Source: a virus
Taxonomy: Duplodnaviria > Caudoviricetes
Virus record (IMG/VR): IMGVR_UViG_3300033062_002302
Direction: 5' to 3' (one strand)
Length of the DNA: 64,000 nt
Below, piece by piece: positions 6,907-27,503 of the stretch (positions are counted from its first letter, which is position 1; every line of letters begins with the position of its first letter). The notes under the pieces were generated by a model. That model saw nothing but the letters and a program-made list of their open reading frames with translations, made no database searches and had not been told where the DNA came from. The position numbers and the translations under genes were made by a program.

Positions 6907-6907
6907 A

Positions 6908-8991: not shown

Positions 8992-9600
8992 TTGGACGAA
9001 TTTGCCCCATATTTTAAAAAGAATGGTTGTTTTGTCGTTAGGAACACTACTCCTTATCGCAATAAAACAATTAGAATTTTTAATTATCCTATTTTGTATA
9101 ACGAGACCAGAGATCTATTAAGTATCCCTGGTGTCGCTGAGCAGGATATTCGTGCTTCTCTTTTAAAAGGAGAAATTAAACATAAGATATTATCTGGCGA
9201 TATTGTAATTGAATGTTCGGATATAGATTTACTTCAATTTAATAGCACTCATAAGTCGTTCCTTCAAGCGGCTGGAGTTGTAAAAGGACTCCAAGTTGGC
9301 GCTGGCAATTTAGACGTTCTTCATAAAGAAGATATTCAATTGCTTGGCGTTATAGACAATTCAAATACTGTGTTTGCGATTCCGTTTGGAACATTTATTC
9401 AAAATGATATTTATAAAATAATTGTTTATCGCAACGGTGTAAAGCAGTTGTATTTAGACGATTATTTTATTGCTGAGTCGGGTGGACCTGGAACTGGGTT
9501 TAACACTTGTATATTTTCTGTTGCGCCGAATACGGTTAATGGGATTGTTGACGTTATCACAGCGGACTATTATTTAGATAATACTGAGGCGGAAGTTTGA
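8992..9600 (+). CDS. Putative fibre-attachment/decoration protein
   Basis: C-terminal NTVF...VYRNGVKQ...DY...F..AP....ITADY beta module seen in phage fibre proteins; overlaps the start of the collagen gene. Confidence 0.55.
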
Positions 9601-12600
9601 GTCGCGTTAACGCTGATCAGCTAAAAGGAACTCCGACTGGATCTGGCGGTGGGGGATCTGGTATTGGTGCGACTGGACCACAGGGACCTCAGGGTTCGCC
9701 TGGAGTTACTGGAAGTATTGGTCCTCAGGGCGTTCAAGGACCTACCGGGTCTATTGGTCCACAAGGCATTCAAGGACCGACAGGAGCTATTGGACCTCAA
9801 GGTCCTACTGGCTCAATTGGTCTTCAAGGACCTACCGGAAGCGTTGGACCGCAGGGCATTCCTGGAGCAACAGGACCAACCGGTCCACAAGGAAATCCAG
9901 GACCAACAGGAAGTATTGGTCCACAGGGTGTTGCGGGTCCGACCGGAAGCATTGGAACTCAAGGCGAGCAAGGTCCAACTGGTAGCATTGGTCCACAAGG
10001 ACCAACAGGGGCTATTGGACCTCAGGGTTTAGCTGGAGCGACTGGACCTCAAGGTAATCAAGGAATTCAGGGAGCAACTGGAACTCAGGGACCTCAAGGA
10101 TCTGCTGGTGTTACTGGACCAACAGGTCCACAAGGACAGCAGGGAATACAAGGCGCTACAGGAGTTCAAGGTCCTCAAGGTTCAGCCGGAGCGACAGGAT
10201 CGATTGGACCGCAGGGCGATGCAGGACCGACAGGATCTATTGGACCTCAAGGCGTTCAAGGACCTACGGGAAGCATTGGACCTGCTGGAACTCAAGGCGC
10301 AACAGGTTCAATTGGACCGCAGGGAAATATTGGTGCGACAGGAGTTCAAGGTCCTCAGGGAACTCAAGGAGCAACGGGACCAGCTGGAGCACAAGGAATT
10401 CAGGGTCCAACCGGATCAATTGGACCACAAGGACTTCAGGGTTCGGCTGGAGCTACAGGAAGTATAGGACCACAGGGTCCAACTGGAACAATTGGAGCGA
10501 CTGGACCTCAAGGTCAACAAGGTGTTCAAGGACCTACGGGATCAATTGGTCCTCAGGGTATTCAAGGAGTAACTGGAAGTCAGGGACCTCAAGGATCTGC
10601 TGGTGTAACGGGACCTCAGGGAAATCCTGGTGCAGCAGGACCTACGGGAAGTATTGGTCCACAGGGTCCAACCGGAAGTGTTGGTCCTCAAGGATTACAA
10701 GGATCTGCTGGTGTCACTGGTCCTCAAGGTGCGCCTGGACCAACTGGGTCAATTGGACCTCAGGGTAATATTGGAGCAACCGGACCAACAGGTCCTGCCG
10801 GAGCACAAGGTCCTCAAGGAGCTACCGGATCACAGGGCATTCAAGGTTCAGCAGGCGTAACAGGACCACAAGGAAATCCTGGACCAACAGGTAGTATTGG
10901 ACCTCAGGGTCCAACTGGAAGTATTGGTCCCCAAGGCATTCAGGGTTCTGCTGGTGTAACAGGACCTCAAGGAAATGACGGAGCAACAGGTCCACAGGGA
11001 GCTACTGGTTCAATCGGACCTCAAGGTCCAACCGGCAGTGTTGGTCCAGCAAGCTTTGGAAGAATTGTTTATTTCGACCATCAAACTACAGATGTAATTA
11101 ACTATAGAAAACTTCTGGTAACCCCAGATTCAGCCGATCCAGGACAAGATGAGTCGGTAACAATCACATCAGCAAGTGGCGAAACTCTCATCAGAGCTTT
11201 CGTTAGCGAGCCTGATAGTCTTGGTCAAATTGGCGCAAACTTAATTCCAGCAGGAAGATGGAGTTTTCACTTATGGAGGTATGTCAGCGCAACAGGTGGA
11301 GTCAGCCAAATCATTCTGAAAGTTTTCACTAGAACAGCTGGAGGCGTTGAAACCGAACATTTCTCAGTAACTACTTCTGATATTCAGGATACGGCAATTG
11401 CATTTGAGACAATCGAATATGTTGCAAATGAAATTACTGGATTGAGCGTAACCGACCGCCTGGTATATAAGGTATATGCCGTAACAACGTCTGGAACAAG
11501 CAAAACCATTCATTTCGCATATGATGGTAGCGTTACAGCATCTCTCGTATTGACGCCATTGTGGGCAATTATGGGTGTGACTGGTTCACAGGGTCCAACA
11601 GGAAGTATTGGTCCTCAAGGAATACAAGGTTCTGCTGGAGTTACAGGAGCTATTGGACCACAAGGTTCAGCTGGCGTCACAGGTCCACAGGGACCTCAAG
11701 GTATTCAAGGTGTAACTGGTTCAATTGGACCTCAAGGGATTCAGGGTGCGACTGGACCACAAGGAGTTCAGGGTTCTCAGGGAGCGACAGGAAGCGTTGG
11801 TGCTCAGGGTATTCAAGGCTCTGCTGGAGCTACAGGTCCACAGGGACCTCAGGGTATTCAAGGCGCAACCGGAGTTCAAGGACCTCAAGGGTCTCAAGGA
11901 TCAACAGGAAGTATTGGTCCGCAAGGACCTACGGGATCAATTGGTCCTCAAGGAATACAAGGAGCAACGGGAGTTCAGGGTCCGCAAGGATCGCAAGGAG
12001 CTACAGGATCTATAGGACCCCAAGGCGTTCAAGGATCTGCCGGAGCAACTGGAGTACAAGGTCCAACAGGCTCTATTGGACCACAGGGATTACAAGGATC
12101 TGCTGGTGTAACTGGAGCACAAGGTATTCAGGGCGTTCAAGGTTCTCAGGGAGCCACAGGATCAATTGGACCACAAGGTCCAACTGGAAGTATTGGTCCT
12201 CAAGGAGTTGCTGGAGCAACAGGTCCACAGGGCGTTCAAGGGTCTCAGGGAGCTACAGGATCTATTGGTCCTCAAGGCATCCAAGGGTCTCAAGGTGCAA
12301 CCGGTAGCATTGGACCTCAAGGTGTTCAAGGAGCCACGGGATCAACGGGTCCACAAGGTGCTCAGGGTATTCAAGGCTCGACTGGACCTACGGGTCCACA
12401 GGGACAACAGGGTATTCAAGGACCGACAGGCAGCATTGGACCACAAGGTATTCAAGGGGCAACCGGACCCACGGGTCCGCAAGGAAATCAGGGCTCGACA
12501 GGATCTATTGGACCCCAGGGTATTCAAGGATCGCAAGGGGCTACAGGTTCAATTGGACCGCAAGGTCCTACTGGGTCTATTGGTCCTCAAGGCATTCAAG

Positions 12601-15600
12601 GATCGCAAGGTGCTACAGGCTCAATAGGTCCTCAAGGAGTTCAGGGATCTCAGGGAGCCACAGGATCAATTGGACCTCAGGGACCTACCGGATCAATTGG
12701 TCCTCAGGGTATTCAAGGTGTTACGGGTCCCCAAGGACAACAAGGATCTCAAGGCAATACTGGTTCAATCGGACCACAAGGCTTGCAAGGCTCTGCTGGT
12801 GTCACAGGTCCAACTGGACCTCAAGGCGCCCAAGGTTCTACAGGCTCTATTGGACCGCAGGGTCCAACCGGATCAATTGGACCTCAAGGAATTCAAGGTT
12901 CACAAGGAAATACAGGATCTGTAGGACCACAAGGTCCAACTGGCAGTATTGGTCCTCAAGGAATTCAAGGATCTGCGGGGGCAACTGGTCCAATTGGACC
13001 TCAGGGGTCAGCGGGTGTTACAGGTCCACAAGGACAGCAGGGAGTTCAAGGACCTACAGGATCTATTGGTCCACAAGGGGTTCAAGGATCGCAGGGTGCA
13101 ACTGGCAGCATTGGACCTCAAGGTCTACAGGGTTCTGCTGGTGCCACCGGATCGATTGGTCCTCAGGGCATTCAAGGTCCAACTGGAAGTATTGGACCAC
13201 AAGGTTCTACAGGGACTATTGGTTCTACTGGACCTACTGGTCCTCGTGGAGCAACTGGTGTTCAAGGCTTACAAGGAAGTCAAGGTTCTACAGGTTCCAT
13301 TGGTCCACAAGGGCTTCAAGGATCTGCTGGTGTTACGGGATCACAAGGTATTCAGGGAATCCAAGGTTCTCAGGGAGCTACAGGATCTATTGGTCCTCAA
13401 GGCATTCAGGGCGTAACAGGTTCACAGGGCATTCAAGGATCTCCGGGTGCGACAGGATCAATAGGTCCTCAAGGACCAACAGGAAGTATTGGACCGCAGG
13501 GCATTCAAGGCTCACAAGGAGCAACTGGAAGTGTCGGTCCCCAAGGCATTCAGGGTTCGGCTGGTGTTACAGGTCCGACTGGACCCCAAGGTATTCAAGG
13601 TTTGCAAGGAAGCCAAGGATCCACAGGATCTATTGGACCCCAAGGAATCCAAGGATCACAAGGAACTACAGGCTCTATTGGACCGCAGGGTCCAACTGGA
13701 TCGATAGGTCCTATTGGACCAACAGGCTCTATCGGTCCTCAAGGGATTCAGGGAGCAACAGGAGTTCAAGGACCTCAAGGTTCACAAGGTGCCACTGGAT
13801 CTATTGGTCCTCAAGGCATACAAGGATCTCAGGGTAATACAGGTTCAATTGGTCCACAAGGTTCTACAGGACCACAAGGAATTCAAGGCGTAACGGGTCC
13901 ACAAGGTATTCAGGGCTCCGCTGGTGTTACGGGTGCAACAGGACCACGCGGAGCAACTGGCGCTCAGGGTATTCAAGGATCACAAGGAGCTACAGGATCT
14001 ATAGGACCCCAAGGCGTTCAAGGTTCACAGGGATCGACTGGAAGTATTGGTCCTCAGGGTATTCAGGGATCAGCAGGTGTAACAGGTCCACAAGGTATAC
14101 AGGGAATTCAAGGACCCACTGGTTCAATCGGACCTCAAGGTCCAACCGGTAGCATTGGACCCCAAGGCGTTCAAGGGTCTCAGGGAGCTACAGGATCTAT
14201 TGGTCCTCAAGGCATTCAAGGAAGTCAAGGCGCAACTGGAAGTGTTGGACCTCAAGGTATACAGGGCTCCGCTGGAGCAACTGGACCACAAGGTCCTCAA
14301 GGAATTCAAGGTGTAACAGGGGTAACAGGTCCGCAGGGACCAACGGGAACGATTGGGGCTACTGGATCTCAGGGTATTCAAGGATCACAAGGGGCTACAG
14401 GAAGTATAGGACCACAGGGTATTCAAGGTGCAACTGGCATTCAAGGACCACAAGGATCTCAAGGATCAACAGGAAGTATTGGACCTCAGGGAGTTCAGGG
14501 TTCACAAGGCGCGACAGGATCCATTGGACCTCAAGGCGCTCAAGGTTCACAAGGAGCTACGGGATCAATAGGTCCGCAAGGTATTCAAGGAGCGACAGGA
14601 TCTATTGGTCCACAAGGATCACAGGGTTCACAGGGCGCTACAGGATCAATTGGACCTCAAGGAATTCAAGGATCACAAGGTAGCACTGGTAGTATTGGAC
14701 CACAAGGTCCGCAAGGAGCTACTGGAATTCAAGGCATTCAAGGCTCTCAAGGAGCTACGGGATCCATTGGACCTCAGGGTATTCAGGGACCAACAGGTCC
14801 TCAAGGACAACAAGGATCTCAGGGAGCTACTGGCTCTATCGGTCCTCAAGGTTTACAAGGTTCTGCTGGTGTAACTGGAATTCAGGGTCCAACAGGATCT
14901 ATTGGACCACAAGGTATTCAGGGCATTACAGGAGTGACTGGTCCTCAGGGTCCACAAGGATCTGCTGGCGTTACTGGTGCGACTGGTCCGCGTGGCGCAA
15001 CAGGAGTTCAGGGCATTCAAGGATCTCAAGGCTCAACAGGCTCTATTGGTCCGCAGGGTATTCAAGGCTCTGCCGGTGTAACAGGTCCACAAGGAATTCA
15101 GGGTTCTCAAGGTTCAACTGGCAGCATTGGTCCACAAGGCATTCAAGGACCAACTGGTAGTATAGGTCCACAGGGCATTCAGGGTTCTGCTGGCGTTACT
15201 GGAGCTACAGGTCCACAAGGGCAGCAAGGAATTCAAGGACCTACAGGATCTATTGGTCCACAAGGGATCCAAGGATCTCAGGGTAATACTGGATCAATTG
15301 GTCCTCAGGGACCAACTGGTAGCGTTGGCTCACAAGGTCCACAGGGAAGTCAAGGTTCTACTGGATCAATCGGTCCTCAAGGAATTCAGGGATCTCAGGG
15401 AGCCACAGGATCAATTGGACCTCAGGGACCAACAGGAAGTATTGGTCCGCAAGGAATTCAGGGCTCTCAAGGTGCTACTGGTAGCATTGGTCCACAAGGA
15501 CCTCAGGGATCACAAGGTTCAACTGGAAGTATTGGTCCTCAGGGTATTCAAGGACCTACAGGATCAATCGGACCTCAGGGCATTCAAGGGGTACAAGGAT

Positions 15601-17315
15601 CTCAGGGAGCTACAGGATCTATTGGTCCTCAAGGTATACAGGGAAGCCAAGGTTCTACAGGATCCATTGGACCACAAGGCATTCAAGGACCAACGGGAAG
15701 CGTTGGACCCCAAGGAATTCAAGGCGCGACAGGACCACAGGGACCAACCGGAAGCATTGGACCTCAGGGTGTTCAAGGATCACAAGGGTCAACAGGATCA
15801 ATAGGTCCTCAAGGCATACAAGGAGCAACAGGAGTTCAAGGACCTCAAGGCTCACAAGGAAGTACGGGCTCAATTGGACCGCAGGGAAATATTGGTCCTA
15901 CAGGATCTATTGGACCTCAAGGTCCAACCGGAAGTGTTGGTCCACAGGGAGCGCAAGGGTCGCAAGGCGCCACTGGTTCAATCGGACCTCAAGGTATTCA
16001 AGGTTCTCAAGGTGCAACAGGCTCAATCGGACCACAAGGTCCGACTGGAAGTATTGGTCCTCAGGGCATTCAGGGTGCGACTGGTCCAACAGGACCGCAA
16101 GGCAATCAAGGATCTACTGGTAGTATTGGACCGACTGGAACAATTGGACCTCAAGGAAATGATGGGGTAACAGGTCCAACTGGACCTCAAGGAGAACAAG
16201 GAATTCAAGGTCCCACCGGATCAATTGGTCCACAAGGTGTAACTGGTCCAGCTGGAAATTTCAGCGGAGATATGCCGGTTGCTTTTCGTGTTGCAACTGG
16301 GCACATTCAACCAACAGCTTTAACATATACAGCTATTCCTAGCACTTATATTAGCATTACTCTTAATGCAAACGCTAATATTCTTTGGGATTATGCCATG
16401 CAACTTATTGCATCTGGTGTGACTGTTGGCGCTGGCGGTCCCGCTAACGTTGAAACTCGCTGGGTTGTTGATGGGGTAGCTCGACGCGAAAATCAAGTTT
16501 TAGTTCATACTGGACCAGTAGAAGTTAGTTCTATTCTTGCTGATTTTTATTCTGCCGGTAATCATACTGGATATATTGAATGGCGTAAAACTGCTGCTTC
16601 AAGAATAGTATCTTTAGATAAAGGTTCATTTAGAGCGGTTGGCTTACAGGGTGCCGCAGGCGTTCAAGGACCAACCGGACCTTCTGGGGGACCTCCGGGA
16701 CCGACTGGTCCTCAAGGTGGAAATGGACCGCAGGGACCAACCGGACCAACCGGTCCAATTGGACCGCAAGGTTCTCCTGGAGTTCCAACAGGTGTTTGGT
16801 TCGCTCAAGATCATGTTTTAACGGCAACTGGACCAAACGTTCGTTCATTATCTGGTTATAGCCAAGCTGGTTTTACTGGAGCTAACCTTGACGTCAAAGT
16901 AACAAGAGCCATTAACTTTTCTCAACCTAATGGTAGAATTATTGATGTTGTTACTTCATTAAGAACTGTTGGTACGGCATATACAAACCTCCACGTATTT
17001 TCATTAGATGAAAGCGTTTCTGGAGCGACTATGACTTTCCAAAATGTTATAGCAAAAGTAAATGCTATTTCAGCTTCCGGAGCATATTTTGGAAGATGGA
17101 CATTAGAGCAAGATTATTATAGGGTTCGCTCTATTACGGATTCATTTCCAACAGGATCTTATCCAACTGTTTTAGGTCCAGGAGCGCCTGATGCTAATAC
17201 TGAAATGTGGACTGTCACTATGGCTGCCTCTGGACCAACTGGTTTCTTACAAGTTCGTGGAAGTTCAGGAGTAACTTGGTTTGCTAATATTCAAAGACAA
17301 AGGGTGTTAGTATAA
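9597..17315 (+). CDS. Giant collagen-like fibre protein (2572 aa)
   Basis: Gly-X-Y blocks of 154 and 520 triplets plus a short third block, separated by globular beta-rich domains. Confidence 0.95.
9666..11051 (+). repeat. Collagen Gly-X-Y block 1 (154 triplets)
   Basis: 1386 nt = 154 x 9; [12 protein letters not shown] triplets. Confidence 0.9.
11574..16253 (+). repeat. Collagen Gly-X-Y block 2 (520 triplets)
   Basis: 4680 nt = 520 x 9; [21 protein letters not shown] triplets with varied synonymous codons. Confidence 0.9.
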
Positions 17316-18158: not shown

Positions 18159-21100
18159 ATGAATTATAAAAAAGCCCCTATCAGCATGTGCCTCATTGTC
18201 AAAAACAATGAAAATTGCCTAGAGCAATGCCTACTATCTTTTAAAGATTATGTCGATCAAATAGTAATCATAGATACAGGCTCAACTGATAATACCCCTC
18301 AAATAGCTTTGAAATACGCTAATATGTATGAGGTTTATACTGACTGTAATGATCCAGAGACTGGATTAATAGCTGATTTTTCTATGGCTCGAAATCGGGC
18401 GTTTGAATTAGCAACAAATGAAATTGTCGGATGGATTGATTCCGATGATATTCTGGTAGGAGCAGAAAATCTACCTAAAGTAGTATCAGAATTAATGTCT
18501 TCTGGCAAATCAACTATTATCATGTTTCCTTATGAATATTCTTATAATGAAGCTGGTAAATGTACTTGCCTTCATTATAGAGAAAGATTATTTTCAAATA
18601 AAAATGATATTAAATTTATCAATCCTGTTCATGAAGTCGCCGTTCCTTATGATGGAATAAACCCTAATTTCATTATTAATGAAGATGTTGTTTTCAAACA
18701 TCAAAGACAGTTTTTAGGGACCGTAATAGAAACCGGCAGAAATCTAAGAATTCTTAAAGATTACTTTGATAAAGTTGGTGAATCTGACGCTCGTCAAATG
18801 TATTATCTTGGTCTTGAATATTCTAATAATGGCTTTATTAAAGAAGCTTTAGAATATCTTTCTCGATATGTTGAAATATCTGGTTGGGATGACGAAAGAG
18901 CGATGGCTTGCCTTAAATTGGTTGAGCTTTATCAAAATCTCGGACAATATGAAGCCGGTTTAAAATGGGCATTTAAAACAATTGAGCTCAAAGAATCTTG
19001 GGGCGAAGGCTATTTCAGCCTAGCTAAAATGTTTTATTTCCTAGCTCAGGCTGGCGGTCCATATGAAATGAGAAACTGGGAAAGATGCGTTCATTTTTCT
19101 AAACTCGGACTTCAGCTGCCTCCAACTAAAACATTATTATTTGTTAATCCATTAGAAAGAGACTATGAAATACATAGGTATTTAAATTTTGCTTTATCTA
19201 AATTAGGAGATTTTCCAGGTGCCCTCGAAAGCGTCAACATCGCTTTAGCAACTAAACCTAATGATCAAGTTCTTTTATCAAATAAAAAGCTTTATTTGTC
19301 ATGGATGTTAAAACAAAATATTATTCAAAATCTAAATCAATTAAAAGAAATTGATGGAATCAATGATGATCATTTTACAACATTTAATTCATTAATTAAT
19401 GGTCAAACGCCTCAATTATTAAAACAAAATGAAGCGGTTAATTATGATAGGTCTCCGTTTCCTGTTGCTAATACATCATCTAATAATGATTATTGGTCAA
19501 TTCCTATTGGGATAAATTTTGATAGTTATCCAATTAATTTAAACCAAGCGCAATTACAATCGGTTGTTTTGTTAATTTGGAAACAATATATGCTTCATGA
19601 TGAAGTATTATCAGCCATTTCATTTTTAGAGAAAGCTCCGTATAGCGTCAGACATTCTTTTGAAACTGAAAAAGCTTTAAAATTAACCAAAGCCTGCCTA
19701 GATTGGATGAAAAACGATGCTGATTTCCAAAGCACAAATTCTCCGGCTAATACTGAAGTAGAAGCTGGAAATCCATTGCCTAATAAATTAGTTATGTCTG
19801 AAGGACATCGTTTTGACTTTGTCGCTGAAAGATTAAAGCCAGAATCAATTATAGTTGACTTTGGATGTATGGACGGCTGTTTTACTAATAGATTTGGAAT
19901 GCTAGGTCACAAACCAACCGGACTTGATGTTTGTGAAAGCTCTATTAAATTGGCTCGAAAGAAAGCGATTGAATTTAATACTGGAGCAAAGTATGTTCAA
20001 TCTTATTTTCATGAGGCAGTAGATAAAGTACCCAATAATTATTTTGAATATGCGACGAGTACGGATACTTATGAGCATTTAGTTGATCCTGTCACTGAAA
20101 TGCTTATTCCGGCAAAGAAAATGTTAAAAGAAGATGGTAAGTTTCTTTTAGCGACTCCGTATGGTTCTTGGATGCGCGGTCAATATGTTGATTGGGCTCA
20201 TCCTTGGCTCTTTGAGAAAGAAGGAAAGAGTTGGCTGTCTCCTTTTGCACGCGGACATATTGTTGCTCCGACCGTTTGGACCGTCGCGGAAGATTTTAGA
20301 AAAGCCGGATATTGGGTTAAGGATTGCTATCCTGATTTGTGCGATAATTCTATGGATGAGAGATCGAGAGAAATTAAGGATCAAGGAAATATATTTGCGG
20401 AAGCACATCTTAAGTTTCCGGAAGGATATAATAAGGGGTTAGATGTTATTTTTATGATTGGAGATGGGGTTGAGAATTATACTCCCAAAACTGTTAAGAA
20501 AACAGGAATCGGCGGCAGTGAGTTAATGGCGATTGAAATGTCTAAAAGATTGGCTGGTCTCGGACATAGAGTTAGGCTATACAATAGTTGTGGAGAGTCT
20601 GGAGAAGGCATTTATGATGGAGTTGAGTATAGATCAACTAATAAATTCCAAGATTTAAAATGTGACGTATTGGTAGTGTCAAGAAGGGCTGACTATTTAG
20701 CCGAAAAATTTAATATTGAGGCAAAGATTAAACTTCTATGGACGCATGATGTGACTCCAATATGTTATACCAATGAATTATTATTAAAGGCTGATCGTAT
20801 TTTATGTTTAAGCAATTGGCACAAACAATTTGTTATGGAGCAATGCAATGTTAATAGCGAACATATAATTGTAACAAGAAACGGAGTAGATCTATCTAGG
20901 TTCGAAAATAAAAATATTCAACGAGACAGATATAAATGCATCTGTACAAGCAGTCCTGACAGGTACCTTTATTCACTTTTGCAAATGTGGCCGAAAATTA
21001 AAGAATGCGTGCCTAAAGCCAATTTAATACTAGGATATGGGTGGTATAATTGGGAGCAAATGGCTAAATCTAATAAAGGTCATATGGATTTAATAAATTT

Positions 21101-21407
21101 GTTAAAAAATACCATTAAAGAAATGGAGCCTTTAGGAGTTACATTTAAAGGACGTATGAATCAAGAAGAATTATCAAATGAGCTGTTAAGTTCTAGTTTG
21201 TGGCTTTTCCCGTCACATTTCACGGAAACATATTGTGTTTCGGCAGCAGAAATGACTGCTGCGGGAGTTAAGATGATTACATCTGATCTCGCTGCGTTAA
21301 AAGAAACAGTAGGCGCGAGGGGTACTCTTATACCTGGAGATTGGCTAAGCGAACATTTTCAAAAAAAATTTATTGAAATGACAATTAAACTCTTATCAGA
21401 AGATTAA
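18159..21407 (+). CDS. Multidomain glycosyltransferase: GT2 + TPR + SAM methyltransferase + GT4 (lacking its last helices)
   Basis: ISMCLIVKN..IDTGSTD..DFS.ARN..WIDSDD (GT2); TPR-like helices; VDFGCMDG..GLD (MTase); GGSE..WTHD..SSPDR..FPSHFTETYC..AAE (GT-B/GT4). Confidence 0.9.
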   Translation: MNYKKAPISMCLIVKNNENCLEQCLLSFKDYVDQIVIIDTGSTDNTPQIALKYANMYEVYTDCNDPETGLIADFSMARNRAFELATNEIVGWIDSDDILVGAENLPKVVSELMSSGKSTIIMFPYEYSYNEAGKCTCLHYRERLFSNKNDIKFINPVHEVAVPYDGINPNFIINEDVVFKHQRQFLGTVIETGRNLRILKDYFDKVGESDARQMYYLGLEYSNNGFIKEALEYLSRYVEISGWDDERAMACLKLVELYQNLGQYEAGLKWAFKTIELKESWGEGYFSLAKMFYFLAQAGGPYEMRNWERCVHFSKLGLQLPPTKTLLFVNPLERDYEIHRYLNFALSKLGDFPGALESVNIALATKPNDQVLLSNKKLYLSWMLKQNIIQNLNQLKEIDGINDDHFTTFNSLINGQTPQLLKQNEAVNYDRSPFPVANTSSNNDYWSIPIGINFDSYPINLNQAQLQSVVLLIWKQYMLHDEVLSAISFLEKAPYSVRHSFETEKALKLTKACLDWMKNDADFQSTNSPANTEVEAGNPLPNKLVMSEGHRFDFVAERLKPESIIVDFGCMDGCFTNRFGMLGHKPTGLDVCESSIKLARKKAIEFNTGAKYVQSYFHEAVDKVPNNYFEYATSTDTYEHLVDPVTEMLIPAKKMLKEDGKFLLATPYGSWMRGQYVDWAHPWLFEKEGKSWLSPFARGHIVAPTVWTVAEDFRKAGYWVKDCYPDLCDNSMDERSREIKDQGNIFAEAHLKFPEGYNKGLDVIFMIGDGVENYTPKTVKKTGIGGSELMAIEMSKRLAGLGHRVRLYNSCGESGEGIYDGVEYRSTNKFQDLKCDVLVVSRRADYLAEKFNIEAKIKLLWTHDVTPICYTNELLLKADRILCLSNWHKQFVMEQCNVNSEHIIVTRNGVDLSRFENKNIQRDRYKCICTSSPDRYLYSLLQMWPKIKECVPKANLILGYGWYNWEQMAKSNKGHMDLINLLKNTIKEMEPLGVTFKGRMNQEELSNELLSSSLWLFPSHFTETYCVSAAEMTAAGVKMITSDLAALKETVGARGTLIPGDWLSEHFQKKFIEMTIKLLSED

Positions 21408-22751
21408 ATGTATCACGCAATTTATGAAAAAATAACAAATAAAATTTTAGATGAACGCATTATTGATAGACCGATAATGAGAGCGAGAAATTATTCCGGC
21501 ATTAAAAATAAAATATTATGGAAATGTAAAAAGTATGAATATAATTGGATTTGCATTCCTGATGGCACTATTAATAATAAAATAAATTGTCCAAAATATG
21601 CCGGAAATTTAAAAATAAATAATGAAATTATAGATCAGAGATTGGAAAATAGAGCAATAAAAAGAATTGGAAACTATATAAATAGTAAATCTAAATTACA
21701 ATTTCAATGTTTATTAGAGAATTGTAATCATATTTGGTTTGCAAATGTTTTAAGTGTAACTAATACTGGAAACGGATGTCCAAAATGCGGTAGAAAAACA
21801 ACTATTGAAAAAAATAAAAGAACTCAAGAAGAAGTGGACGCCATTCTTTTTCCAAGATTAATTAAAATAATTAGTCAGTATATAAATAACTCAACATATT
21901 CAGATTTTAAATGTTTAAAAGAAAACTGCGGATATCAATGGAATGCAATTTGTAGGAACGTATTAAATGGTAATAGAGGTTGTCCCAAATGTGCAAAACG
22001 CTTGCCTATATCAATAGATGTAGTTGATAGCAAATTATTAGCGAAAAACATTAAAAGATTAACTGAATTTGAAAATACACAAAAACACATGCAAGTTCAG
22101 TGCCTGCTAGATAATTATATTTGGAGCGCAACTTATAATAAAATAATACACTCCAATTCAGGATGTCCCAAATGTTATGGAAATGTAAAGCATAATAATG
22201 ATAGCATTGATATAAAATTACAAAATGAAAATCCTTCAGTTTTAAGAAAAGGTAATTTTTTAGGCAAATATATAAAAATATTATGGGGCTGTGTTGATTG
22301 TAATTATCAATGGGAAGCGCAACCACAAGGCATTTTTGCTGGGACTGGGTGTCCGCAATGTAATGTCACAGGCAAAAATGAAAAATTAATATATGAATTA
22401 TTTAAAAATCATAATATCGATTTTAAATATCAAAAATATATAAGGGATTTTTCTAAATTAGAAAATAAAAATTATAGGGTTGATTTTTATCTTGCATCCA
22501 TAAATTTAATTATAGAATATAATGGACATCAACACTATGAACCTGTATGTTTTGGAGGAATGGATTTTTCCAAAGCTGAACAAAAATTTGTTAAACAACA
22601 GGCTAGGGATTTATACGTAAAAAATTTCTGTGTAGAAAACAGTATAAATCTAATGGAGATAGATGGTCGCATTTACAGAAATAAAAAACTAATAAAGTTT
22701 ATTAATGACGAAATCTTGCCTTTATTAAATATAAATAAGAAAGTTGACTAA
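21408..22751 (+). mobile_element. Free-standing homing endonuclease (Zn-ribbon repeats plus Vsr/DUF559-like PD-(D/E)XK domain) inserted in the glycosyltransferase gene
   Basis: Five C...W.A...GCP.C repeats (first one degenerate) and YRVDFYL...IIEYNGHQHY...RD..KN.C...I; more AT-rich than its neighbours. Confidence 0.8.
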
Positions 22752-22924
22752 TGACTAAAAAAGAATATACCCGTGAAGAACTTCAACAATACGCTAAAGA
22801 AAATTTCTGTCTTGACAAACTTGCAAAAGAATGGGAACAGATGTTTTTTGACTTAATAAAAGAAAAAGAAGAGAATCCAATAGTTCCCTATCAACCAACA
22901 AGCCCATATAGAGATGAAGAATAA
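22751..22924 (+). CDS. 57-aa separated C-terminal piece of the split glycosyltransferase (not in ORF track)
   Basis: MTKKEYTREELQQYAKENFCLDKLAKEWEQMFFDLIKEKEENPIVPYQPTSPYRDEE resembles the terminal helices of a GT4 fold; start overlaps the endonuclease stop (TAATG). Confidence 0.75.
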   Translation: MTKKEYTREELQQYAKENFCLDKLAKEWEQMFFDLIKEKEENPIVPYQPTSPYRDEE

Positions 22925-22933
22925 TATAAAATT

Positions 22934-24067
22934 ATGAAAAAGAAAATAGCAGTTATTTTAGGAAATTTTAGTATTGGGGCAAGACCGCTTGACTTCCACT
23001 TCAATAATATTTATGAATCATCTCGGGCTTTAACAGGTACAGACCTGAGCTTTGTAGAGATATCTAAAGCTCTTCATAAAAGAGGTCATGATGTTCATAT
23101 GTTTACGCTCCACGCTCAACCATATCACAAACCTACTCATTGGGAAGGCATCCCTATCTATAATTTTGACGAAAGATTTTCCGTAGTAGATGATTCTTTC
23201 GACGTTATTCTTTCTATTAATGAACCTGATGCGATCAGGGGAATGAATCAAAAGCCTTTAAAAATTTGCTGGCAGTTTTTAAATGACTTTACGTACTGTC
23301 ATCCTGGATTTGATGACTTTGTAGATAAGTGGATTGGCGTTTCAGACGTTCAAGTCAATCATCTTGTTAGTCAACCAAATGCTCCGGCAGCAGAAAAATG
23401 GTCAATTGTTCCTCTTGGTTGCAATCCAGATAACTATCGAGATGAAAGAGTTGAAGGAAGATGCGTTTGGACTTCAAGCTGGGATAGAGGATTACATTGG
23501 CTTTTATCTTGCTGGCCAACCATAAAAAAGGCAGTTCCAAGCGCAAATTTAAGAATCTTCTATCATTTTGAAAGATCTTCAGTTTTAGACATTGAGCCTA
23601 ATGATCCGAACATGCATGTTCATACTAGGGAAATGGGACAAAGATTACGATATTGTTTATATGCTATTGAAAGACTTAAGCCTTTAGGGGTTGAATGTGT
23701 AGGTTCTGTTAGCGCTAATTCTATGATTAAAGAAATGAATGAAGCTTCGGTATTGGCATTTCCAGCGGATCCAGTAGCTTTTACTGAGGGATATTCTTTA
23801 TCAATATTAAATGCTTTAGCATCTTATACCGTGCCGTGCATAACGGATGCAGATTGTTTATTTTCAATATATAAAGATAGTGGAGCTGTTATTGTTCCAA
23901 GAAACATGAATAAGCATTTGGACAAGTACGCGCAAGAAGTTATCAAATATTTAAATAATAAAAATGAGTCCGACCGAGTTATAGCAAAGTGTACAGCTTT
24001 TGCAAAGACAAAAGACTGGAAGCTGATTGCCGAGCAAATGGAGCAAGAATTTAAAAGCAAAGGTTAA
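22934..24067 (+). CDS. Glycosyltransferase family 4 (GT-B)
   Basis: GTD..LHKRGHDV, WTSSWDRGL, AFPA...TEGYSLSILNALAS; paralogous to the GT4 domain of 18159..21407. Confidence 0.85.
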   Translation: MKKKIAVILGNFSIGARPLDFHFNNIYESSRALTGTDLSFVEISKALHKRGHDVHMFTLHAQPYHKPTHWEGIPIYNFDERFSVVDDSFDVILSINEPDAIRGMNQKPLKICWQFLNDFTYCHPGFDDFVDKWIGVSDVQVNHLVSQPNAPAAEKWSIVPLGCNPDNYRDERVEGRCVWTSSWDRGLHWLLSCWPTIKKAVPSANLRIFYHFERSSVLDIEPNDPNMHVHTREMGQRLRYCLYAIERLKPLGVECVGSVSANSMIKEMNEASVLAFPADPVAFTEGYSLSILNALASYTVPCITDADCLFSIYKDSGAVIVPRNMNKHLDKYAQEVIKYLNNKNESDRVIAKCTAFAKTKDWKLIAEQMEQEFKSKG

Positions 24068-24070
24068 AAT

Positions 24071-24487
24071 ATGAAGAACGAAGATTATGTTAAAGAAGTT
24101 TTAGCCGGGCAATTTCCAGAAGACCATAAAGTTCCTTTAGACCCTCCATTTACTGATAATCGAGGTTCTATTCAAAATCTTTGGCTTGGCAATTCTGGAA
24201 GCGTAACTCTTATTAAGAGCGTTAAAGGAGCTGTTCGAGCCAAGCATGTCCATAAAAATGGAGATTGGCACGCTATTTATGTTTTATCTGGGAAAGTCCT
24301 TTATAAACAAGATGTTAATGAGCCTGAGTTAAAAGAAACAGAGTTTTTGCCCGGTCAAATGTTTTTCACTCCACCTGAAGTTTATCATGAAGTTCATATG
24401 TTAGAAGATACTGTGTTTTTAACTATTAATGGTATCTTAAAAAACAATGATAATTATGAAAATTCAATTGAAAGACCTATTAAATGA
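24071..24487 (+). CDS. Cupin-fold NDP-sugar isomerase/epimerase (FdtA/QdtA/RmlC-like)
   Basis: FTDNRGSI, GAVRAKHVH, YVLSG, PPEVYHE cupin motifs inside a sugar cluster. Confidence 0.7.
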   Translation: MKNEDYVKEVLAGQFPEDHKVPLDPPFTDNRGSIQNLWLGNSGSVTLIKSVKGAVRAKHVHKNGDWHAIYVLSGKVLYKQDVNEPELKETEFLPGQMFFTPPEVYHEVHMLEDTVFLTINGILKNNDNYENSIERPIK

Positions 24488-25731
24488 ATGATCAGTGGGC
24501 AACCATTACTAAAACTTGCTCCTTATGTCAAGGAGATTTAAAAGAAGTCATTTCATTTGGAGAAACGCCTCTCGCCAATGAATTCTTAAAACAAGAAGAT
24601 TTGAATCAAGATACATTTCCATTAAATTTGATGGAATGCCAGTCTTGCAATAATGTTCAATTGGATTGTTCTGTTGATCCTGAAAGACTATATAGAAATT
24701 ATGTCTACGTCACTGGGACAAGTAAAGTCAATCAAGAGCATTACAAGTCTTATGCTAATGATGTTGAATCTCGTTATTTAGAGGAAGGCGACTTTATTTT
24801 AGATATCGGGTCTAACGATGGTAGTTTTTTAAGTTATTTCTCTGATAATATTTTTAGATTGGGCGTTGATCCGGCATCATCTATTGCAAGTGATGCCAGC
24901 AATAACGGAATACGCACTATTCCAACGTTTTTTAATGAAGATACTGCTGAACATGAAATTTTATATGAACTACAAAAGTTTGGCTTTTCTAAAGCCAAGG
25001 TTATTACTTGCAATCATTGTTTTGCTCATACTAAAGACATTGAAACAATTTTAAATGGGGTTGTAAGTCTCTTGGATAAAGATGGAGTCTTTGTTTTCGA
25101 GAACTCTTATTTGTTAGATGTTGTAAATAAAGGGTTATTTGATCTTGTTTATTCAGAACATTATTATCATCATCATTTAATTCCACTAGTTAAGCTTCTA
25201 GATAGATTTAATTTAAGAATTTTTGATTTGAAAAGGCTTCCAGAGCAACATGGCGGGTCTATTCGCGTTTTTGTTTGCCACAAATCTGCAAAATATCCGA
25301 TGGAAGATATAGTAGAAGAAACCTTAAAAGAAGAAATGGATCTTTCTTTTAAATTACATAATACATTTAAAGACAACATATCTAAATTAAAATATAATTT
25401 AAATAAAACGGTGTTTGAAATAAAAAATGAACATAAAACAATTGGAATTTATGGTTTTCCAGCTAAAGCAACAACTATTCTTTACGGATTGGGACTTTCT
25501 AAAAGTCTTAATTTATTTGATTTCGTTGTAGACTCTAATCCTATTAAACAAGGTCTTTTTATTCCTGGAGGAGGTCATCAGGTCAAGCATCCAGATGAGG
25601 TTGTTAAACGTCAACCAGATTATCTTTTGATTCTTGCCTGGAATTTTTCGGAATCAATTGTCAAAAATTGTCAAAAAGCAGGATTTAAAGGGAAATTTAT
25701 CATTCCTCTGCCCGAGTTTAAAATTATATGA
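24484..25731 (+). CDS. NDP-hexose C-methyltransferase (Zn-binding, SAM-dependent)
   Basis: CSLC...PLANEF...CQSC..VQL, LDIGSNDG, GVDP, EH, HGGSIR, YG.PAKA, ILAWNF (TylCIII/TcaB9-like). Confidence 0.9.
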   Translation: MNDQWATITKTCSLCQGDLKEVISFGETPLANEFLKQEDLNQDTFPLNLMECQSCNNVQLDCSVDPERLYRNYVYVTGTSKVNQEHYKSYANDVESRYLEEGDFILDIGSNDGSFLSYFSDNIFRLGVDPASSIASDASNNGIRTIPTFFNEDTAEHEILYELQKFGFSKAKVITCNHCFAHTKDIETILNGVVSLLDKDGVFVFENSYLLDVVNKGLFDLVYSEHYYHHHLIPLVKLLDRFNLRIFDLKRLPEQHGGSIRVFVCHKSAKYPMEDIVEETLKEEMDLSFKLHNTFKDNISKLKYNLNKTVFEIKNEHKTIGIYGFPAKATTILYGLGLSKSLNLFDFVVDSNPIKQGLFIPGGGHQVKHPDEVVKRQPDYLLILAWNFSESIVKNCQKAGFKGKFIIPLPEFKII

Positions 25732-26681
25732 AAAAAATATTGGTAACAGGAACTTTAGGATTTATTGGAGCTAATTTTGTTCGCTATGTTAATAGTCATT
25801 ATGATAATTATTCTTTAATAGGATTAGATAAAGCGGTTTATGATTATTGTTTATTAAATACTTGCAGTAATTCCAATTATAAATTTTATTTAGCTGATAT
25901 TGCGAATGAACATATCATTGATCGAGTTTTTGCTATTGAAAAGCCAGATTTTGTTATTAACTTTGCGGCAGAATCATTTGTTTGCTCAAGCATAGAGAAT
26001 CCAAATCCATTTATTTATTCAAATGTTATGGGCACTCAGACATTAATCAACGCTTCTGTTAAATGGGGCATTGAAAAGTTTGTTCAAATCAACACTGATG
26101 AAGTCTATGGTCATCATACTTCTAAAGAGGGTATTCCTTGGACAGAATTGACTCCTCCGAGCCCAAGAAACCCATATGCCGCCTCTAAGTTTGCAGCGGA
26201 GTCTATCCTTCATGCTGCCTATCAGACGCATAAACTCAATTATAACATTAGTCGTTGTTGCAATGTCTTTGGACCAAGGCAGCCAACCAATCGTAACTTA
26301 ATTCCAAAGTCTATTAAAAATATCTTTAATCATGAGTCTATGCCTATTTATGGGGACGGCTCTAATTTACGAGAGTACATCTACGTTGATGACAAGATAA
26401 AAGCTATTATGACTATTTTAGAAAAAGGTCAAAATAATGAAATTTATAATATTGGAACGGGAGAAGAGTTTTCCAATAAAGAAATCGTTTATAAAATAGG
26501 CGAAATTCTTAATATTGCTCCAAAGATTGATTTTGTTGATAAGCGTAAGGGAGATGATTGGCGTTATGCTGTTGACTGCTCTAAATTAATGAAATTAGGG
26601 TGGAAACCTCAATATAATTTTAATAATAAACTAGAAGAAACCATTAAATGGTACATCGATAATAAAGACGTTTGGTTTTAA
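25728..26681 (+). CDS. rfbB: dTDP-glucose 4,6-dehydratase
   Basis: GTLGFIG, NFAAES.V, TDEVYG, PYAASK, GDG.N.RE. Confidence 0.85.
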   Translation: MKKILVTGTLGFIGANFVRYVNSHYDNYSLIGLDKAVYDYCLLNTCSNSNYKFYLADIANEHIIDRVFAIEKPDFVINFAAESFVCSSIENPNPFIYSNVMGTQTLINASVKWGIEKFVQINTDEVYGHHTSKEGIPWTELTPPSPRNPYAASKFAAESILHAAYQTHKLNYNISRCCNVFGPRQPTNRNLIPKSIKNIFNHESMPIYGDGSNLREYIYVDDKIKAIMTILEKGQNNEIYNIGTGEEFSNKEIVYKIGEILNIAPKIDFVDKRKGDDWRYAVDCSKLMKLGWKPQYNFNNKLEETIKWYIDNKDVWF

Positions 26682-27503
26682 ATGAAATTGTTATTAATTG
26701 GGAACGGCGCCTGGGGGCAAAATTACGTAAAAGAAATAAAAGCTAATTTTAAAGACGTTAATTTAACTATTGCGACCCGTGAAAACTGGAAGGATTTAAT
26801 AGATCAAGAGCCTGATGGCGTTATTATTGCGACGCCACCAGATTCACATCTAGAAATAGCATTGTATGTTCTTGAAAAAAACATTCCGGTTCTTTTGGAA
26901 AAGCCAGCCGTTCTTTCATCTTTTGAAATAGAAAAATTAAGACCGTATCAAGAAAATTTAGTTGTAAATTATATTCATTTACACAATGACAAATATAAAA
27001 ACATCAAATCATTAATTTACAATGAAAATATTACCCATATAACAACTAATGGTCAAGGACCTTGTAATAGAGTAAATTACTCTGGATTATGGGATTATGG
27101 TCCCCATGATTTATCTATGATTTTAGATTTATCAAATAAAATTCCTTATCAAGTAGAATGTCGTAAATTAAAAGACCATAGCAGTTATGATTTATTTATA
27201 ATAAATCTAACATTTGATACTTTTAAATCAACAAGCATGGTTGGTTTTAATGTTTCAAAATCTAGAAATATTGACATAGAGACAGATAACATGTCCGTTT
27301 ATTATTCTGATGTTGGAGTTGATCATAAAATGACGCCTCTCAATAACGCTATTTATTATTTTATGTCTTTTATTGATCATTATTATTGTGATTATGAAAA
27401 ATTAAATTTATTATACGGTTTTGAATTATCTGTTAATGTGACTAAAATATTAGAAGCGTGTGAAGAGTCATTAGCCAAACAATCTATTATTAATATCAGA
27501 TAA
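26682..27503 (+). CDS. Gfo/Idh/MocA-family oxidoreductase (putative sugar ketoreductase)
   Basis: IGNGAWG, IATPPDSH, LLEKP, WDYGPHD. Confidence 0.8.
   Translation: MKLLLIGNGAWGQNYVKEIKANFKDVNLTIATRENWKDLIDQEPDGVIIATPPDSHLEIALYVLEKNIPVLLEKPAVLSSFEIEKLRPYQENLVVNYIHLHNDKYKNIKSLIYNENITHITTNGQGPCNRVNYSGLWDYGPHDLSMILDLSNKIPYQVECRKLKDHSSYDLFIINLTFDTFKSTSMVGFNVSKSRNIDIETDNMSVYYSDVGVDHKMTPLNNAIYYFMSFIDHYYCDYEKLNLLYGFELSVNVTKILEACEESLAKQSIINIR

Follow-up and report, generated by a model that had tools for sequence, protein, structure and literature searches.

A gene cassette at positions 9597–27503 (approximately 18 kb) of the window, the whole 64,000-nucleotide stretch analysed, probably encodes a long, uncharged collagen-like fibre together with soluble cytoplasmic machinery that would O-glycosylate it, the fibre being predicted to sit on the virion. 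Judged from sequence, self-glycosylation of the fibre is the likeliest reading of the cassette. Such a coat, if true, could serve adhesion, shielding or helix stability, and the methyl-branched deoxysugar proposed for it would be a rare sugar. ORF positions and family searches bore out the genes named in the preliminary description, their places and their common orientation on the + strand. The source is an uncultured huge phage, a distant relative of Bacillus phage G. The cassette appears to be a swappable, mobile, horizontally exchanged and self-contained block that occupies a hypervariable slot within the structural genes. The features flanking it are as follows.

5127–6137, + strand: major head protein, left backbone context (phrog_2522, E 3.5e-76)
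8257–8982, + strand: conserved backbone ORF of 241 aa, composition charged and suggestive of helices (56 of the 80 loci compared have a homologue behind the head gene)
8992–9600, + strand: backbone ORF, 202 aa, always ahead of the variable slot (homologue in 50 of 80 loci)
27510–28370, + strand: patatin-like phospholipase, right backbone boundary, outside the cassette (PF01734, 3.5e-27)
45933–48683: tail sheath, right-hand context

The capsid gene described on the left is the major head protein, which has 52.5% identity to gp27 of Bacillus phage G. Structural and sheath proteins were found on the right; the late structural block holds the cassette, with the head gene on one side of it and the sheath gene on the other. 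The head protein had 283 relatives in IMG/VR, of which 80 (78–86% identity) were kept for the locus comparison. The slot belongs to a large group of 430–480 kb phages. Family searches (Pfam, PHROG, NCBIfam) gave no match for ORF 8257–8982. The ORF at 8992–9600 had been called attachment-like, a label that was not upheld: it had no match in Pfam, PHROG or NCBIfam and is a conserved backbone ORF with homologues of up to 72% identity. For this ORF the ESM Atlas gave only weak leads, with scores of 0.81–0.83, to DUF4183 and to the N-terminal domain of the T7 tail fibre. The patatin-like phospholipase gene is also present in the cassette-less relatives L029 and L059, and other relatives carry unrelated large ORFans in the slot as alternative alleles. 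Collagen presence is patchy across the tree of head proteins, requiring 9 changes of which at least 4 are forced; this argues that the block moves as a unit.

The first two genes of the cassette encode the collagen-like protein and a LamG protein.

9597–17315, + strand: giant collagen-like protein, 2572 aa (691 Gly-X-Y triplets)
9666–11051, + strand: collagen run 1, 154 uninterrupted GXY triplets, aa 24–485 (repeat count)
11052–11573, + strand: non-collagen domain 1, 174 aa (31–35% identical counterparts in two related collagens)
11574–16262, + strand: collagen run 2, 521 uninterrupted GXY triplets, aa 660–2222 (repeat count)
16263–16640, + strand: non-collagen domain 2, 126 aa (gap between collagen runs)
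16641–16787, + strand: short collagen runs, 6 + 10 triplets (repeat count)
16788–17312, + strand: C-terminal all-beta domain, 175 aa, candidate tip/trimerisation domain (AF2 model)
17315–18103, + strand: LamG/concanavalin-A-like protein, 262 aa (Laminin_G_3 PF13385, E 4e-14)

The size and Thr-richness claimed for the collagen were confirmed. Thr occupies 27% of its Y positions, charged residues are almost absent, and the protein is rich in Thr, Ser and Gln. Across all five collagens, Thr is found in 27–57% of Y positions and charged residues make up 0–4% of helix positions. The gene begins with TTG, overlapping the stop of ORF 8992–9600 (TTGA). This start is supported by a GAGG ribosome-binding site and by alignment of the N-terminus, a conserved peptide ahead of the helices, with ATG-started relatives. 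On the scale of 91 triplets to 77 nm (PMC12357932), run 2 would be about 440 nm long if triple-helical, and the whole fibre roughly 0.6 micrometre. Recent expansion or an assembly artefact as the origin of run 2 was rejected, because its DNA repeats are degenerate (65–86% matches). Non-collagen domain 1 had no match in a Pfam search, and a search of the whole phage record found no prolyl hydroxylase.

The C-terminal domain is rare, with only 26 relatives among 1.84 billion representatives, and nearly all of these (P0122–P0144) have it at their own C-terminus. Its AF2 model (pLDDT 75) is all beta. The fold search gave no clear match (TM ≤0.45), with weak matches to tailspike C-terminal domains and TNF-like lectins, and the Pfam search gave no BclA-C match. 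The LamG gene overlaps the collagen stop with its own start (TAATG). Relatives have short collagen-like or glycine-rich proteins at this position instead of LamG.

The remaining genes of the cassette are listed below.

18159–21407, + strand: fusion enzyme, GT2 (GT-A), TPR-like, class I methyltransferase and GT4 (GT-B) (family searches)
21408–22751, + strand: free-standing homing endonuclease inserted in the GT4 domain of the fusion (phrog_559, E 2e-62; DUF4379 zinc fingers)
22751–22924, + strand: 57-aa ORF, detached C-terminal helices of the fusion GT4 (alignment to intact fusions)
22934–24067, + strand: candidate second GT4/GT1-like glycosyltransferase, 377 aa (PF13692, 22.9 bits, cut-off 27)
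24071–24487, + strand: cupin, candidate NDP-4-keto-sugar isomerase/epimerase (AF2 pLDDT 86 and Foldseek)
24484–25731, + strand: SAM-dependent NDP-hexose 3-C-methyltransferase family enzyme, MtmC/TcaB9 family (PF08421 and PF08484)
25728–26681, + strand: dTDP-glucose 4,6-dehydratase-like SDR, RmlB type (TIGR01181, 318 bits)
26682–27503, + strand: Gfo/Idh/MocA oxidoreductase, candidate pathway ketoreductase (PF01408, 1.6e-9)

The enzymes of the earlier gene list are all present; the list omitted the homing endonuclease before the second GT4 and the splitting of the fusion GT4. Most enzymes matched in the HMM check; the second GT4 stayed under the Pfam cut-off and the RmlB-type enzyme under the TIGR01181 equivalog cut-off of NCBIfam (365 bits).

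The fusion enzyme comprises GT2 (aa 9–134), methyltransferase (aa 552–718) and GT4/GT1 (aa 872–1072) domains, and its TPR region gave a weak signal. Among solved structures, the GT2 domain is closest to GmaR (2e-16), a flagellin glycosyltransferase, and to SunS/ThuS-type enzymes. The NCBIfam model also names the SunS family, whose members glycosylate peptides. More than 350 fusion homologues were found, many on 430–470 kb contigs, with an invariant WxDxDD motif. The endonuclease, absent at this site in all four syntenic relatives, truncates the main ORF C-terminally, leaving the last ~50 residues of the GT4 domain in the 57-aa ORF. This ORF continues from residue 1082 of the upstream ORF and has 57–62% identity to the C-terminal ends of intact fusions. 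The split GT4 domain might be impaired in this phage. The second GT4 is 23% identical to the fusion GT4 domain and is kept in every cassette (48–53% identity in the four syntenic relatives). The phage carries two or more additional glycosyltransferase clusters elsewhere, and cross-talk between them and the cassette may occur.

The top Foldseek matches of the cupin are FdtA, QdtA, RmlC-type epimerases and the CapF cupin, and its invariant residues are H59-x-H61, H67 and H106. Its gene immediately precedes that of the C-methyltransferase in three of the four relatives; in the fourth, G003, two small genes separate the two. The C-methyltransferase matched MtmC (E 3.7e-67), TcaB9 (2e-52) and KijD1-type enzymes (2e-49) over its full length, and the zinc CxxC...CxxC and catalytic His/Tyr-x-Glu-His motifs are aligned and kept. 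The RmlB-type dehydratase matched PDB 6bi4 (1e-68) and keeps the TDE and YxxxK motifs. The Gfo/Idh/MocA enzyme matched only generic sugar dehydrogenases of its family in the profile search, and in the four syntenic cassettes its gene takes the final or penultimate position. The second GT4, cupin and Gfo enzyme are candidate identities drawn from weak homology plus position. The enzymes support a nucleotide-sugar pathway of the predicted C-methyl-branched 6-deoxyhexose type, as first described. Mycarose, named in the preliminary description as an example of a branched sugar, is less likely as the product than a 3-C-methyl-6-deoxyhexose, because mycarose-type 2-deoxygenation enzymes are absent among the cassette genes.

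We propose that dTDP-glucose would come from the RmlA-like thymidylyltransferase encoded elsewhere in the same phage record, or from the host. The RmlB homologue would convert it to dTDP-4-keto-6-deoxyglucose, which the cupin may epimerise or isomerise. The MtmC/TcaB9-family enzyme would methylate a ring carbon, C3 by family precedent, and the Gfo/Idh/MocA enzyme would reduce the keto group to give dTDP-3-C-methyl-6-deoxyhexose. The GT2-TPR domain may start glycans on Thr/Ser of the GXT/GSX triplets, a step for which SgtA/GmaR-like enzymes use UDP-GlcNAc. Both GT4 modules would extend the glycan with the branched sugar, and the methyltransferase domain of the fusion could O-methylate a sugar.

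The synteny survey proposed in the preliminary description showed the same order (collagen, GT fusion, GT4, cupin, C-methyltransferase, RmlB, Gfo) in all four collagen-bearing relatives with enough contig. The identities between these cassettes are only 35–59%, compared with 81–83% for the head proteins. Twenty relatives, five of them at least 97% complete, have no collagen in the slot; none of them has the fusion or a close C-methyltransferase. Only two weak GT2 matches were found in these 20, and they are approximately 4 kb away from two of the three collagen-like ORFs there that pass the Pfam cut-off. A collagen-like ORF lies upstream on the same strand in 28 of 34 IMG/VR fusion homologues. 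The transferases, which comparison with known enzymes supports as a soluble, protein-glycosylating kind, travel with collagen-like fibre genes across relatives, and the fibre itself is therefore their likeliest substrate. This part of the earlier glycan-coat proposal is supported; placing the coat on head fibres is conjecture.

This co-occurrence could also come from physical linkage alone, the genes sharing a mobile block without a substrate relationship. The targets of the enzymes would then be other proteins of the virion (capsid, sheath, baseplate or small partners), as in mycobacteriophages, with the collagen a mere neighbour. We consider this unlikely. Of the 34 fusion homologues, 6 have no upstream collagen, and enzymes of this family can therefore act on other targets, of which the product of the variable post-collagen gene could be one. 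However, the 20 relatives without the cassette enzymes share the same backbone structural genes, and the enzymes therefore cannot serve a clade-wide target; the weak GT2 matches in these relatives are again close to collagen genes, and no cassette protein contains a DGY tripeptide. It is more doubtful that the collagen-like protein, with or without glycans, is an infection-stage or released product such as a matrix, a decoy or a spore-coat mimic. It has no homology to known virion proteins, its slot is allelic with unrelated large ORFans, and its C-terminal domain lacks a clear fold match to a fibre tip. Against this, the gene lies inside the structural block, translationally coupled to a conserved gene after the head protein, the weak fold matches point to tailspike domains and TNF-like lectins, and phage collagen-like repeats usually form the shafts of fibres.

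A glycan made for the host envelope (superinfection block or serotype change), for phage DNA or as a free nucleotide-sugar metabolite is very improbable. DNA and host O-antigens are known targets of phage glycosyltransferases (reviewed in PMC12619734), and deoxysugar enzymes alone do not indicate the acceptor. However, no cassette enzyme has a membrane-like segment, and family searches of the cassette genes returned no flippase, polymerase or polyprenyl-phosphate (lipid-carrier) transferase, which argues against polysaccharide export. The GT2 domain, whose nearest solved relatives are protein and peptide glycosyltransferases, the late structural location and the tight linkage to collagen genes also speak against this reading.

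Among the closest known systems is Clostridioides difficile SgtA, encoded next to its substrate, the exosporium collagen-like protein BclA3; it places the initiating O-GlcNAc on Thr within the BclA3 collagen repeats and also tolerates Ser there (PMC7157674). As in the cassette, a soluble enzyme with a GT-A (GT2) domain ahead of its TPR repeats is encoded beside a Thr-rich collagen-like gene; we infer a relationship to SgtA from the GmaR/SunS matches and the shared architecture. Unlike SgtA, the GT2-TPR of the cassette is phage-encoded, fused to a methyltransferase and GT4, located downstream of the collagen gene and accompanied by its own deoxysugar pathway. The terminal sugars of B. cereus BclA are 3-C-methyl-6-deoxyhexoses. 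BclA collagen regions carry short O-glycans (e.g., anthrose, cereose), made by exosporium glycoprotein pathways for rhamnose/anthrose in B. anthracis and cereose/cillose in B. cereus (PMC12357932; Li et al. 2017, cited in PMC10050317). BclA resembles the cassette in its GXT-rich collagen region, its short O-glycans ending in unusual deoxysugars (predicted for the cassette) and a sugar pathway operon dedicated to the fibre. The B. cereus pathway is CDP-based, whereas that of the cassette looks dTDP-based. BclA has about 40–400 aa of collagen and a TNF/C1q-like BclA-C domain, whereas the cassette protein contains 691 triplets and ends in a rare domain of another kind.

Mimivirus has glycosylated fibrils, collagen-like genes, and a virus-encoded nucleotide-sugar pathway and glycosyltransferases that coat the particle. 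It differs in being a eukaryotic virus with hydroxylysine glucosylation, rhamnose, viosamine and bacillosamine, and its enzymes are unrelated to those of the cassette. To our knowledge, mycobacteriophages have no phage-encoded C-branched sugar pathway. As proposed for the cassette, they encode glycosyltransferases that act in the host cytoplasm on structural proteins of the same phage (Freeman et al. 2023, cited in PMC12619734). Unlike in the cassette, capsid and tail-tube subunits are modified there, at their C-termini, and collagen is not involved. MtmC, TylC3, TcaB9 and KijD1 (PDB 4rv9, 3ndi, 5t64) are the same three-domain enzyme as the C-methyltransferase, with the same zinc site and catalytic residues. 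Their substrates are 2,6-dideoxy or 3-amino sugars destined for small-molecule glycosides of antibiotic pathways, whereas the cassette has no 2,3-dehydratase or aminotransferase genes and its acceptor is likely a protein.

The collagen gene and the sugar enzymes that follow it form a cassette at 9597–27503 on the plus strand. All genes that the preliminary description had named here were present and co-oriented; its list had omitted a homing endonuclease gene that interrupts the fusion enzyme within its GT4 domain. The genes of the cassette discussed below are as follows.

9597–17315 (+), collagen gene, 2572 aa, 691 Gly-X-Y triplets with uninterrupted runs of 154 and 521
18159–21407 (+), fusion enzyme of 1082 aa, comprising GT2, a TPR-like region, methyltransferase and GT4
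21408–22751, free-standing homing endonuclease (phrog_559, E = 2e-62)
22751–22924, 57-aa ORF, the detached C-terminal end (last ~50 residues) of the GT4 domain of the fusion
22934–24067 (+), second GT4, a GT4/GT1 protein
24071–24487 (+), cupin
24484–25731 (+), C-methyltransferase
25728–26681 (+), RmlB-type dehydratase
26682–27503 (+), Gfo/Idh/MocA protein

The window comes from a 239-kb virus record in IMG/VR (minus strand), the completeness of which is 56% (CheckV). The major head protein (5127–6137) matched phrog_2522 (E = 3.5e-76) and shared 52.5% identity with its counterpart in Bacillus phage G, gp27. Relatives of the head protein numbered 283 in IMG/VR, some of them on complete genomes of 430–480 kb, and a tail sheath gene lies at 45933–48683. 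These findings place the cassette among the late structural genes of a huge, uncultured phage. Two routes led to relatives: the head protein (80 of the 283 retained, 78–86% identity) and an alignment of the fusion enzyme. IMG/VR scans with single proteins (the C-methyltransferase and the LamG protein) gave no matches, and megablast of the enzyme block against GenBank phages gave 0 matches. Bacillus phage G showed no counterpart of the cassette beside its head gene; the two backbone ORFs 8257–8982 and 8992–9600 also had no counterpart there. Four HNH/endonuclease-VII-like homing endonuclease genes surround the major head gene (3794–4987 on the minus strand and 6301–8037 on the plus strand), three of them in tandem. 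Related copies were found at the same site in approximately 22 of the 80 relatives.

The conserved gene pair 8257–8982 and 8992–9600 is followed in related phages by one of at least three unrelated kinds of large protein. The ORF at 8992–9600, previously labelled an attachment-like protein, had no family match and proved to be a conserved backbone gene, with a homologue in 50 of the 80 related loci regardless of the gene that follows. A role for this ORF as adaptor for a common N-terminal peptide of the following protein was ruled out, since three unrelated N-terminal classes follow it. The backbone resumes with the patatin gene at 27510 and its small downstream neighbours, so 9597–27503 is the variable slot of this phage. 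At the related loci L013–L092, the slot holds the collagen type or one of two unrelated classes, each with its own conserved N-terminus. The non-collagen classes (N-termini MSxESPAAILFD...YRLQV and M...NALDQALDIAGSL) are 118–1082 aa long, and most had no family match. The slot type is dispersed over the head-protein tree. The patatin-like phospholipase (27510–28370; PF01734, E = 3.5e-27) lies directly 3′ of the cassette, is weakly similar to a CBASS lipase model, and is kept in the backbone of relatives within the structural gene block.

The X positions of the collagen triplets are mainly Pro (33%) and Ser (29%), the Y positions Gln (49%) and Thr (27%), and charged residues account for 0.6% of X and Y positions together. 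The G+C content of the gene is 51–53% against a background of 32%, owing to the Gly and Pro codons. Its DNA repeats are degenerate (65–86% matches), and collagens of 2258–2349 aa occupy the same site in three independent metagenome contigs, so the ORF is not an assembly artefact. The start codon, TTG, shares bases with the stop of the preceding gene (TTGA), lies behind a GAGG site, and aligns with ATG-started relatives that have the N-terminal peptide MSK(V/I)NAxQ(I/L)KG in common. At the published scale of 77 nm for 91 triplets (PMC12357932), the two long runs would span approximately 130 and 440 nm. Thr makes up 27–57% of Y positions in all five collagens, and charged residues 0–4%. The record, which is 56% complete, gave no prolyl hydroxylase. 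In Riftia, glycosylated Thr stabilises a cuticle collagen that is poor in hydroxyproline. The cassette also encodes a LamG protein (PF13385, E = 4e-14). In two relatives (L107:6015–12791, genome G004; L111:6885–13934, genome G002), the giant collagen is interrupted at intervals by 6–10 copies of a 77-aa non-collagen module, giving beads on a string and not one long helix.

The collagen protein is not a member of the BclA family. It resembles BclA in its central GXT-rich collagen-like region (27% GXT here, over 691 triplets). However, the BclA-C (TNF/C1q-like) C-terminal domain had no Pfam match in the phage collagen, and the N-terminus is another conserved peptide, common only to the phage collagens, whereas BclA has an exosporium-targeting leader. 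The C-terminal domain is rare and all-beta, with 26 relatives among 1.84 billion representatives. It had no Pfam match and no clear fold match (TM ≤ 0.45); the fold search gave weak jelly-roll and TNF-like lectin matches only, and a BclA-C/C1q fold is unsupported. PMC12357932 describes O-glycans with anthrose or cereose tips on the collagen regions of BclA.

The GT2 domain of the fusion enzyme matched PF00535 (E = 5e-16), and its closest solved relatives were Listeria GmaR (2e-16) and the SunS/ThuS peptide S-glycosyltransferases (SunS 5.5e-12). Its DxD-type motif, W92-x-D94-x-D96-D97, was invariant across 28 homologues. The best NCBIfam model was that of SunS, but the score (TIGR04195, 60 bits) was far under the cut-off of 350, so the fusion is judged to be no SunS orthologue, only a relative within the wider group. 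The TPR signal was weak in the fusion (TPR_1, E = 0.01; TPR end model, E = 5e-4), and Pfam TPR families are recorded for several close homologues. Compared by layout, the fusion has the GT-A plus TPR arrangement described for SgtA of C. difficile. The collagen repeats of BclA3 receive beta-O-GlcNAc from SgtA on Thr (Ser is also accepted), and the SgtA gene adjoins bclA3 (PMC7157674). Genes for enzymes of the SgtA/GmaR/SunS type adjoin that of their protein substrate; similarly, a same-strand collagen-like ORF lies upstream of the fusion homologue in 28 of 34 IMG/VR loci. These comparisons point to a predicted protein glycosyltransferase of this type, with Ser, Thr or Cys as acceptor.

More than 350 homologues of the fusion enzyme were found. 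Its GT4 domain is intact in four relatives and split here by the homing endonuclease. The 57-aa ORF, the ATG of which overlaps the endonuclease stop, is contiguous with residue 1082 when aligned to these four intact fusions.

In HMM searches, families were recovered for the GT2 domain, the C-methyltransferase, the RmlB-type dehydratase and the Gfo/Idh/MocA protein, the second GT4 gave a weak match, and the cupin matched generic cupin families only. The C-methyltransferase has a zinc-binding N-domain, a SAM domain and a C-terminal domain (PF08421, 5e-16; PF13489, 8e-10; PF08484, 1.3e-35). It aligned end to end with MtmC (4rv9, 3.7e-67), TcaB9 (3ndi) and a KijD1-type enzyme. The zinc site CxxC...CxxC is kept, a His is aligned, and Y223-S-E225-H226 aligns to the TcaB9 motif. 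This His and the Tyr-x-Glu-His motif correspond to catalytic residues that were reportedly mutated in studies of TcaB9. The enzyme is predicted to act on an NDP-4-keto sugar, with C3 as the site typical of its family, and the carbon methylated would depend on the prior step of the cupin. Among 50,697 phage records in GenBank, only 7 have a homologue of it, and these 7 are uncharacterised. The RmlB-type dehydratase is an extended SDR that keeps the GxxGxxG, Thr-Asp-Glu (TDE) and YxxxK motifs. Its best solved match was the dTDP-glucose 4,6-dehydratase 6bi4 (1e-68). It scored 318 bits with TIGR01181, under the equivalog cut-off of 365, and 83/57 bits with CDP-/GDP-sugar dehydratase models.

The cupin had no sequence match to the sugar-isomerase families FdtA and dTDP_sugar_isom of Pfam. 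A profile search returned the CapF cupin (1e-4), RmlC (0.02) and FdtA (0.6). An AlphaFold model from five orthologues (pLDDT 86) matched FdtA, QdtA, HCAN_0198 and WlaRB in Foldseek (E ~4e-7, TM 0.63–0.70), and also RmlC-type epimerases and the CapF cupin. H59-x-H61, H67 and H106 are invariant and compatible with an FdtA-like base pair or a CapF-like metal site. The model thus makes the cupin a candidate 3,4-ketoisomerase or epimerase. The Gfo/Idh/MocA protein matched generic sugar dehydrogenases only, and kinship with KijD10-type 3-ketoreductases was not detected in the search; it is a candidate pathway reductase because of its conserved position. Since family searches of the cassette genes returned no 2,3-dehydratase or aminotransferase, the likeliest predicted product is a dTDP-3-C-methyl-6-deoxyhexose. 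Mycarose is unlikely, as these searches returned no 2,3-dehydratase or 3-ketoreductase pair.

As a putative source of dTDP-glucose, the same record has, approximately 74 kb upstream, a gene resembling glucose-1-phosphate thymidylyltransferase next to an RmlD-like one. The thymidylyltransferase-like gene is also present in cassette-free relatives and is therefore a backbone gene. The sugar genes outside the window in this record (G000:C1:216–218 kb, 230–236 kb and 58–61 kb) are this RmlA-like and RmlD-like pair, a nucleotidyltransferase fusion with a beta-phosphoglucomutase-like HAD domain, four or five small GT2 genes in a row, and a second cluster with GT2/GT1 genes.

A synteny survey showed that the enzyme order is kept in related phages. 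In all four collagen-bearing relatives whose contigs are long enough, collagen is followed in turn by a small collagen/glycine-rich protein, the GT2-TPR-(MT)-GT4 fusion, variable extras, GT4, cupin, C-methyltransferase, RmlB and Gfo. The cassette proteins of these four are 35–59% identical and the head proteins 81–83%. The extras comprise class I and FkbM-type methyltransferases, GT1 enzymes, SDR epimerases and homing endonucleases, so the glycan probably differs between phages. Neither the fusion nor a close C-methyltransferase occurred (0/20 each) in 20 relatives whose slot has no collagen, five of them at least 97% complete. These 20 gave only two weak GT2 matches, each approximately 4 kb away from a different one of the three collagen-like ORFs over the Pfam cut-off in those genomes. 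In the reverse direction, starting from the fusion, a C-methyltransferase lay downstream in 22 of the 34 IMG/VR loci. The collagen state requires 9 changes on the head-protein tree, at least 4 of these forced by well-supported branches. This scatter indicates that the block is exchanged repeatedly and travels whole.

The two weak GT2 homologues (G011:C1:394826–399816 and G014:C1:50746–54913, in genomes of relatives) thus neighbour the only sizeable collagen-like ORFs of those genomes; this is another, independent pairing of GT2 with collagen at a different genomic site. An odd passenger of the sugar operon was also seen in relatives: a REC (receiver) domain protein between or beside the C-methyltransferase and RmlB genes (L115:16129–17046, L112:8293–9204, L110:1288–1701), fused in two cases to a dual-specificity phosphatase domain. 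It is absent from the window.

The best reading of the block, and one that we hold to be reasonably probable, is a self-contained cassette for a fibre and its glycosylation. The four pathway enzymes would make the branched deoxysugar. The GT2-TPR domain may initiate O-glycosylation of the collagen chains at Thr/Ser, the GT4 modules may lengthen the glycans with this sugar, and the methyltransferase domain of the fusion may methylate a sugar. Precedents are the glycans of BclA, the pair of BclA3 and SgtA, and the cuticle collagen of Riftia. The glycosylation chemistry and the virion location of the fibre are proposals. Other virion proteins could be the targets of the enzymes, but this explanation ranks lower, since relatives with the same backbone structural genes lack the cassette (phylogenetic profile). 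Non-protein acceptors of the glycan also rank lower, weakened by the solubility and the family of the transferases. No cassette protein has a membrane-like segment, and family searches of the cassette genes returned no flippase, polymerase or lipid-carrier transferase, which is in keeping with glycosylation of proteins directly in the cytoplasm and speaks against synthesis of a surface polysaccharide. A collagen with a non-virion role is likewise ranked below the glycosylated-fibre cassette.

We speculate further, with considerable doubt, that a clade of 430–480 kb phages swaps ready-made glyco-fibre cassettes. Each would provide a fibre of up to approximately 0.6 micrometre, longer than the phage's own tail, and a private, diversifying glycan code with C-methyl-branched sugars so far undescribed in phages. 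As stabiliser, glycosylated Thr would replace hydroxyproline and charge pairs in a triple helix that runs longer without a break than any yet seen outside animals, and the glycan would decide host capture or evasion of immunity or defence.

Phages with collagen-like fibres, bacteria with glycosylated collagens and the glycosylation of phage virions are all known already. What is new is the pairing of collagen and glycosylation as a repeatedly exchanged cassette in a huge-phage clade, together with a predicted complete C-methyl-branched deoxysugar pathway and the apparent extreme length of the uninterrupted helix. If the reading is true, phages carry the whole maturation chemistry for collagen fibres, beyond borrowing repeats; part of this chemistry is a pathway to branched deoxysugars, which elsewhere is known from producers of antibiotics, from Coxiella and from Bacillus spores. 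Virion glycosylation would then extend from mycobacteriophages to huge environmental phages, and nature would offer a test case for the stability of a triple helix of ~1,560 residues that lacks both hydroxyproline and charge. With so few enzymes, all soluble, co-expression in E. coli would test the claim directly. As a candidate determinant of host range, the variable cassette could be read from metagenomes.

A contig scan with the fusion beyond IMG/VR gave only three matches (L153–L155). Their MAGs bear the labels uncultured Gammaproteobacteria, Methylobacter and Anaerolineae, and the contigs themselves probably belong to phages. If their binning reflects co-abundance, they may hint at non-Firmicutes hosts.
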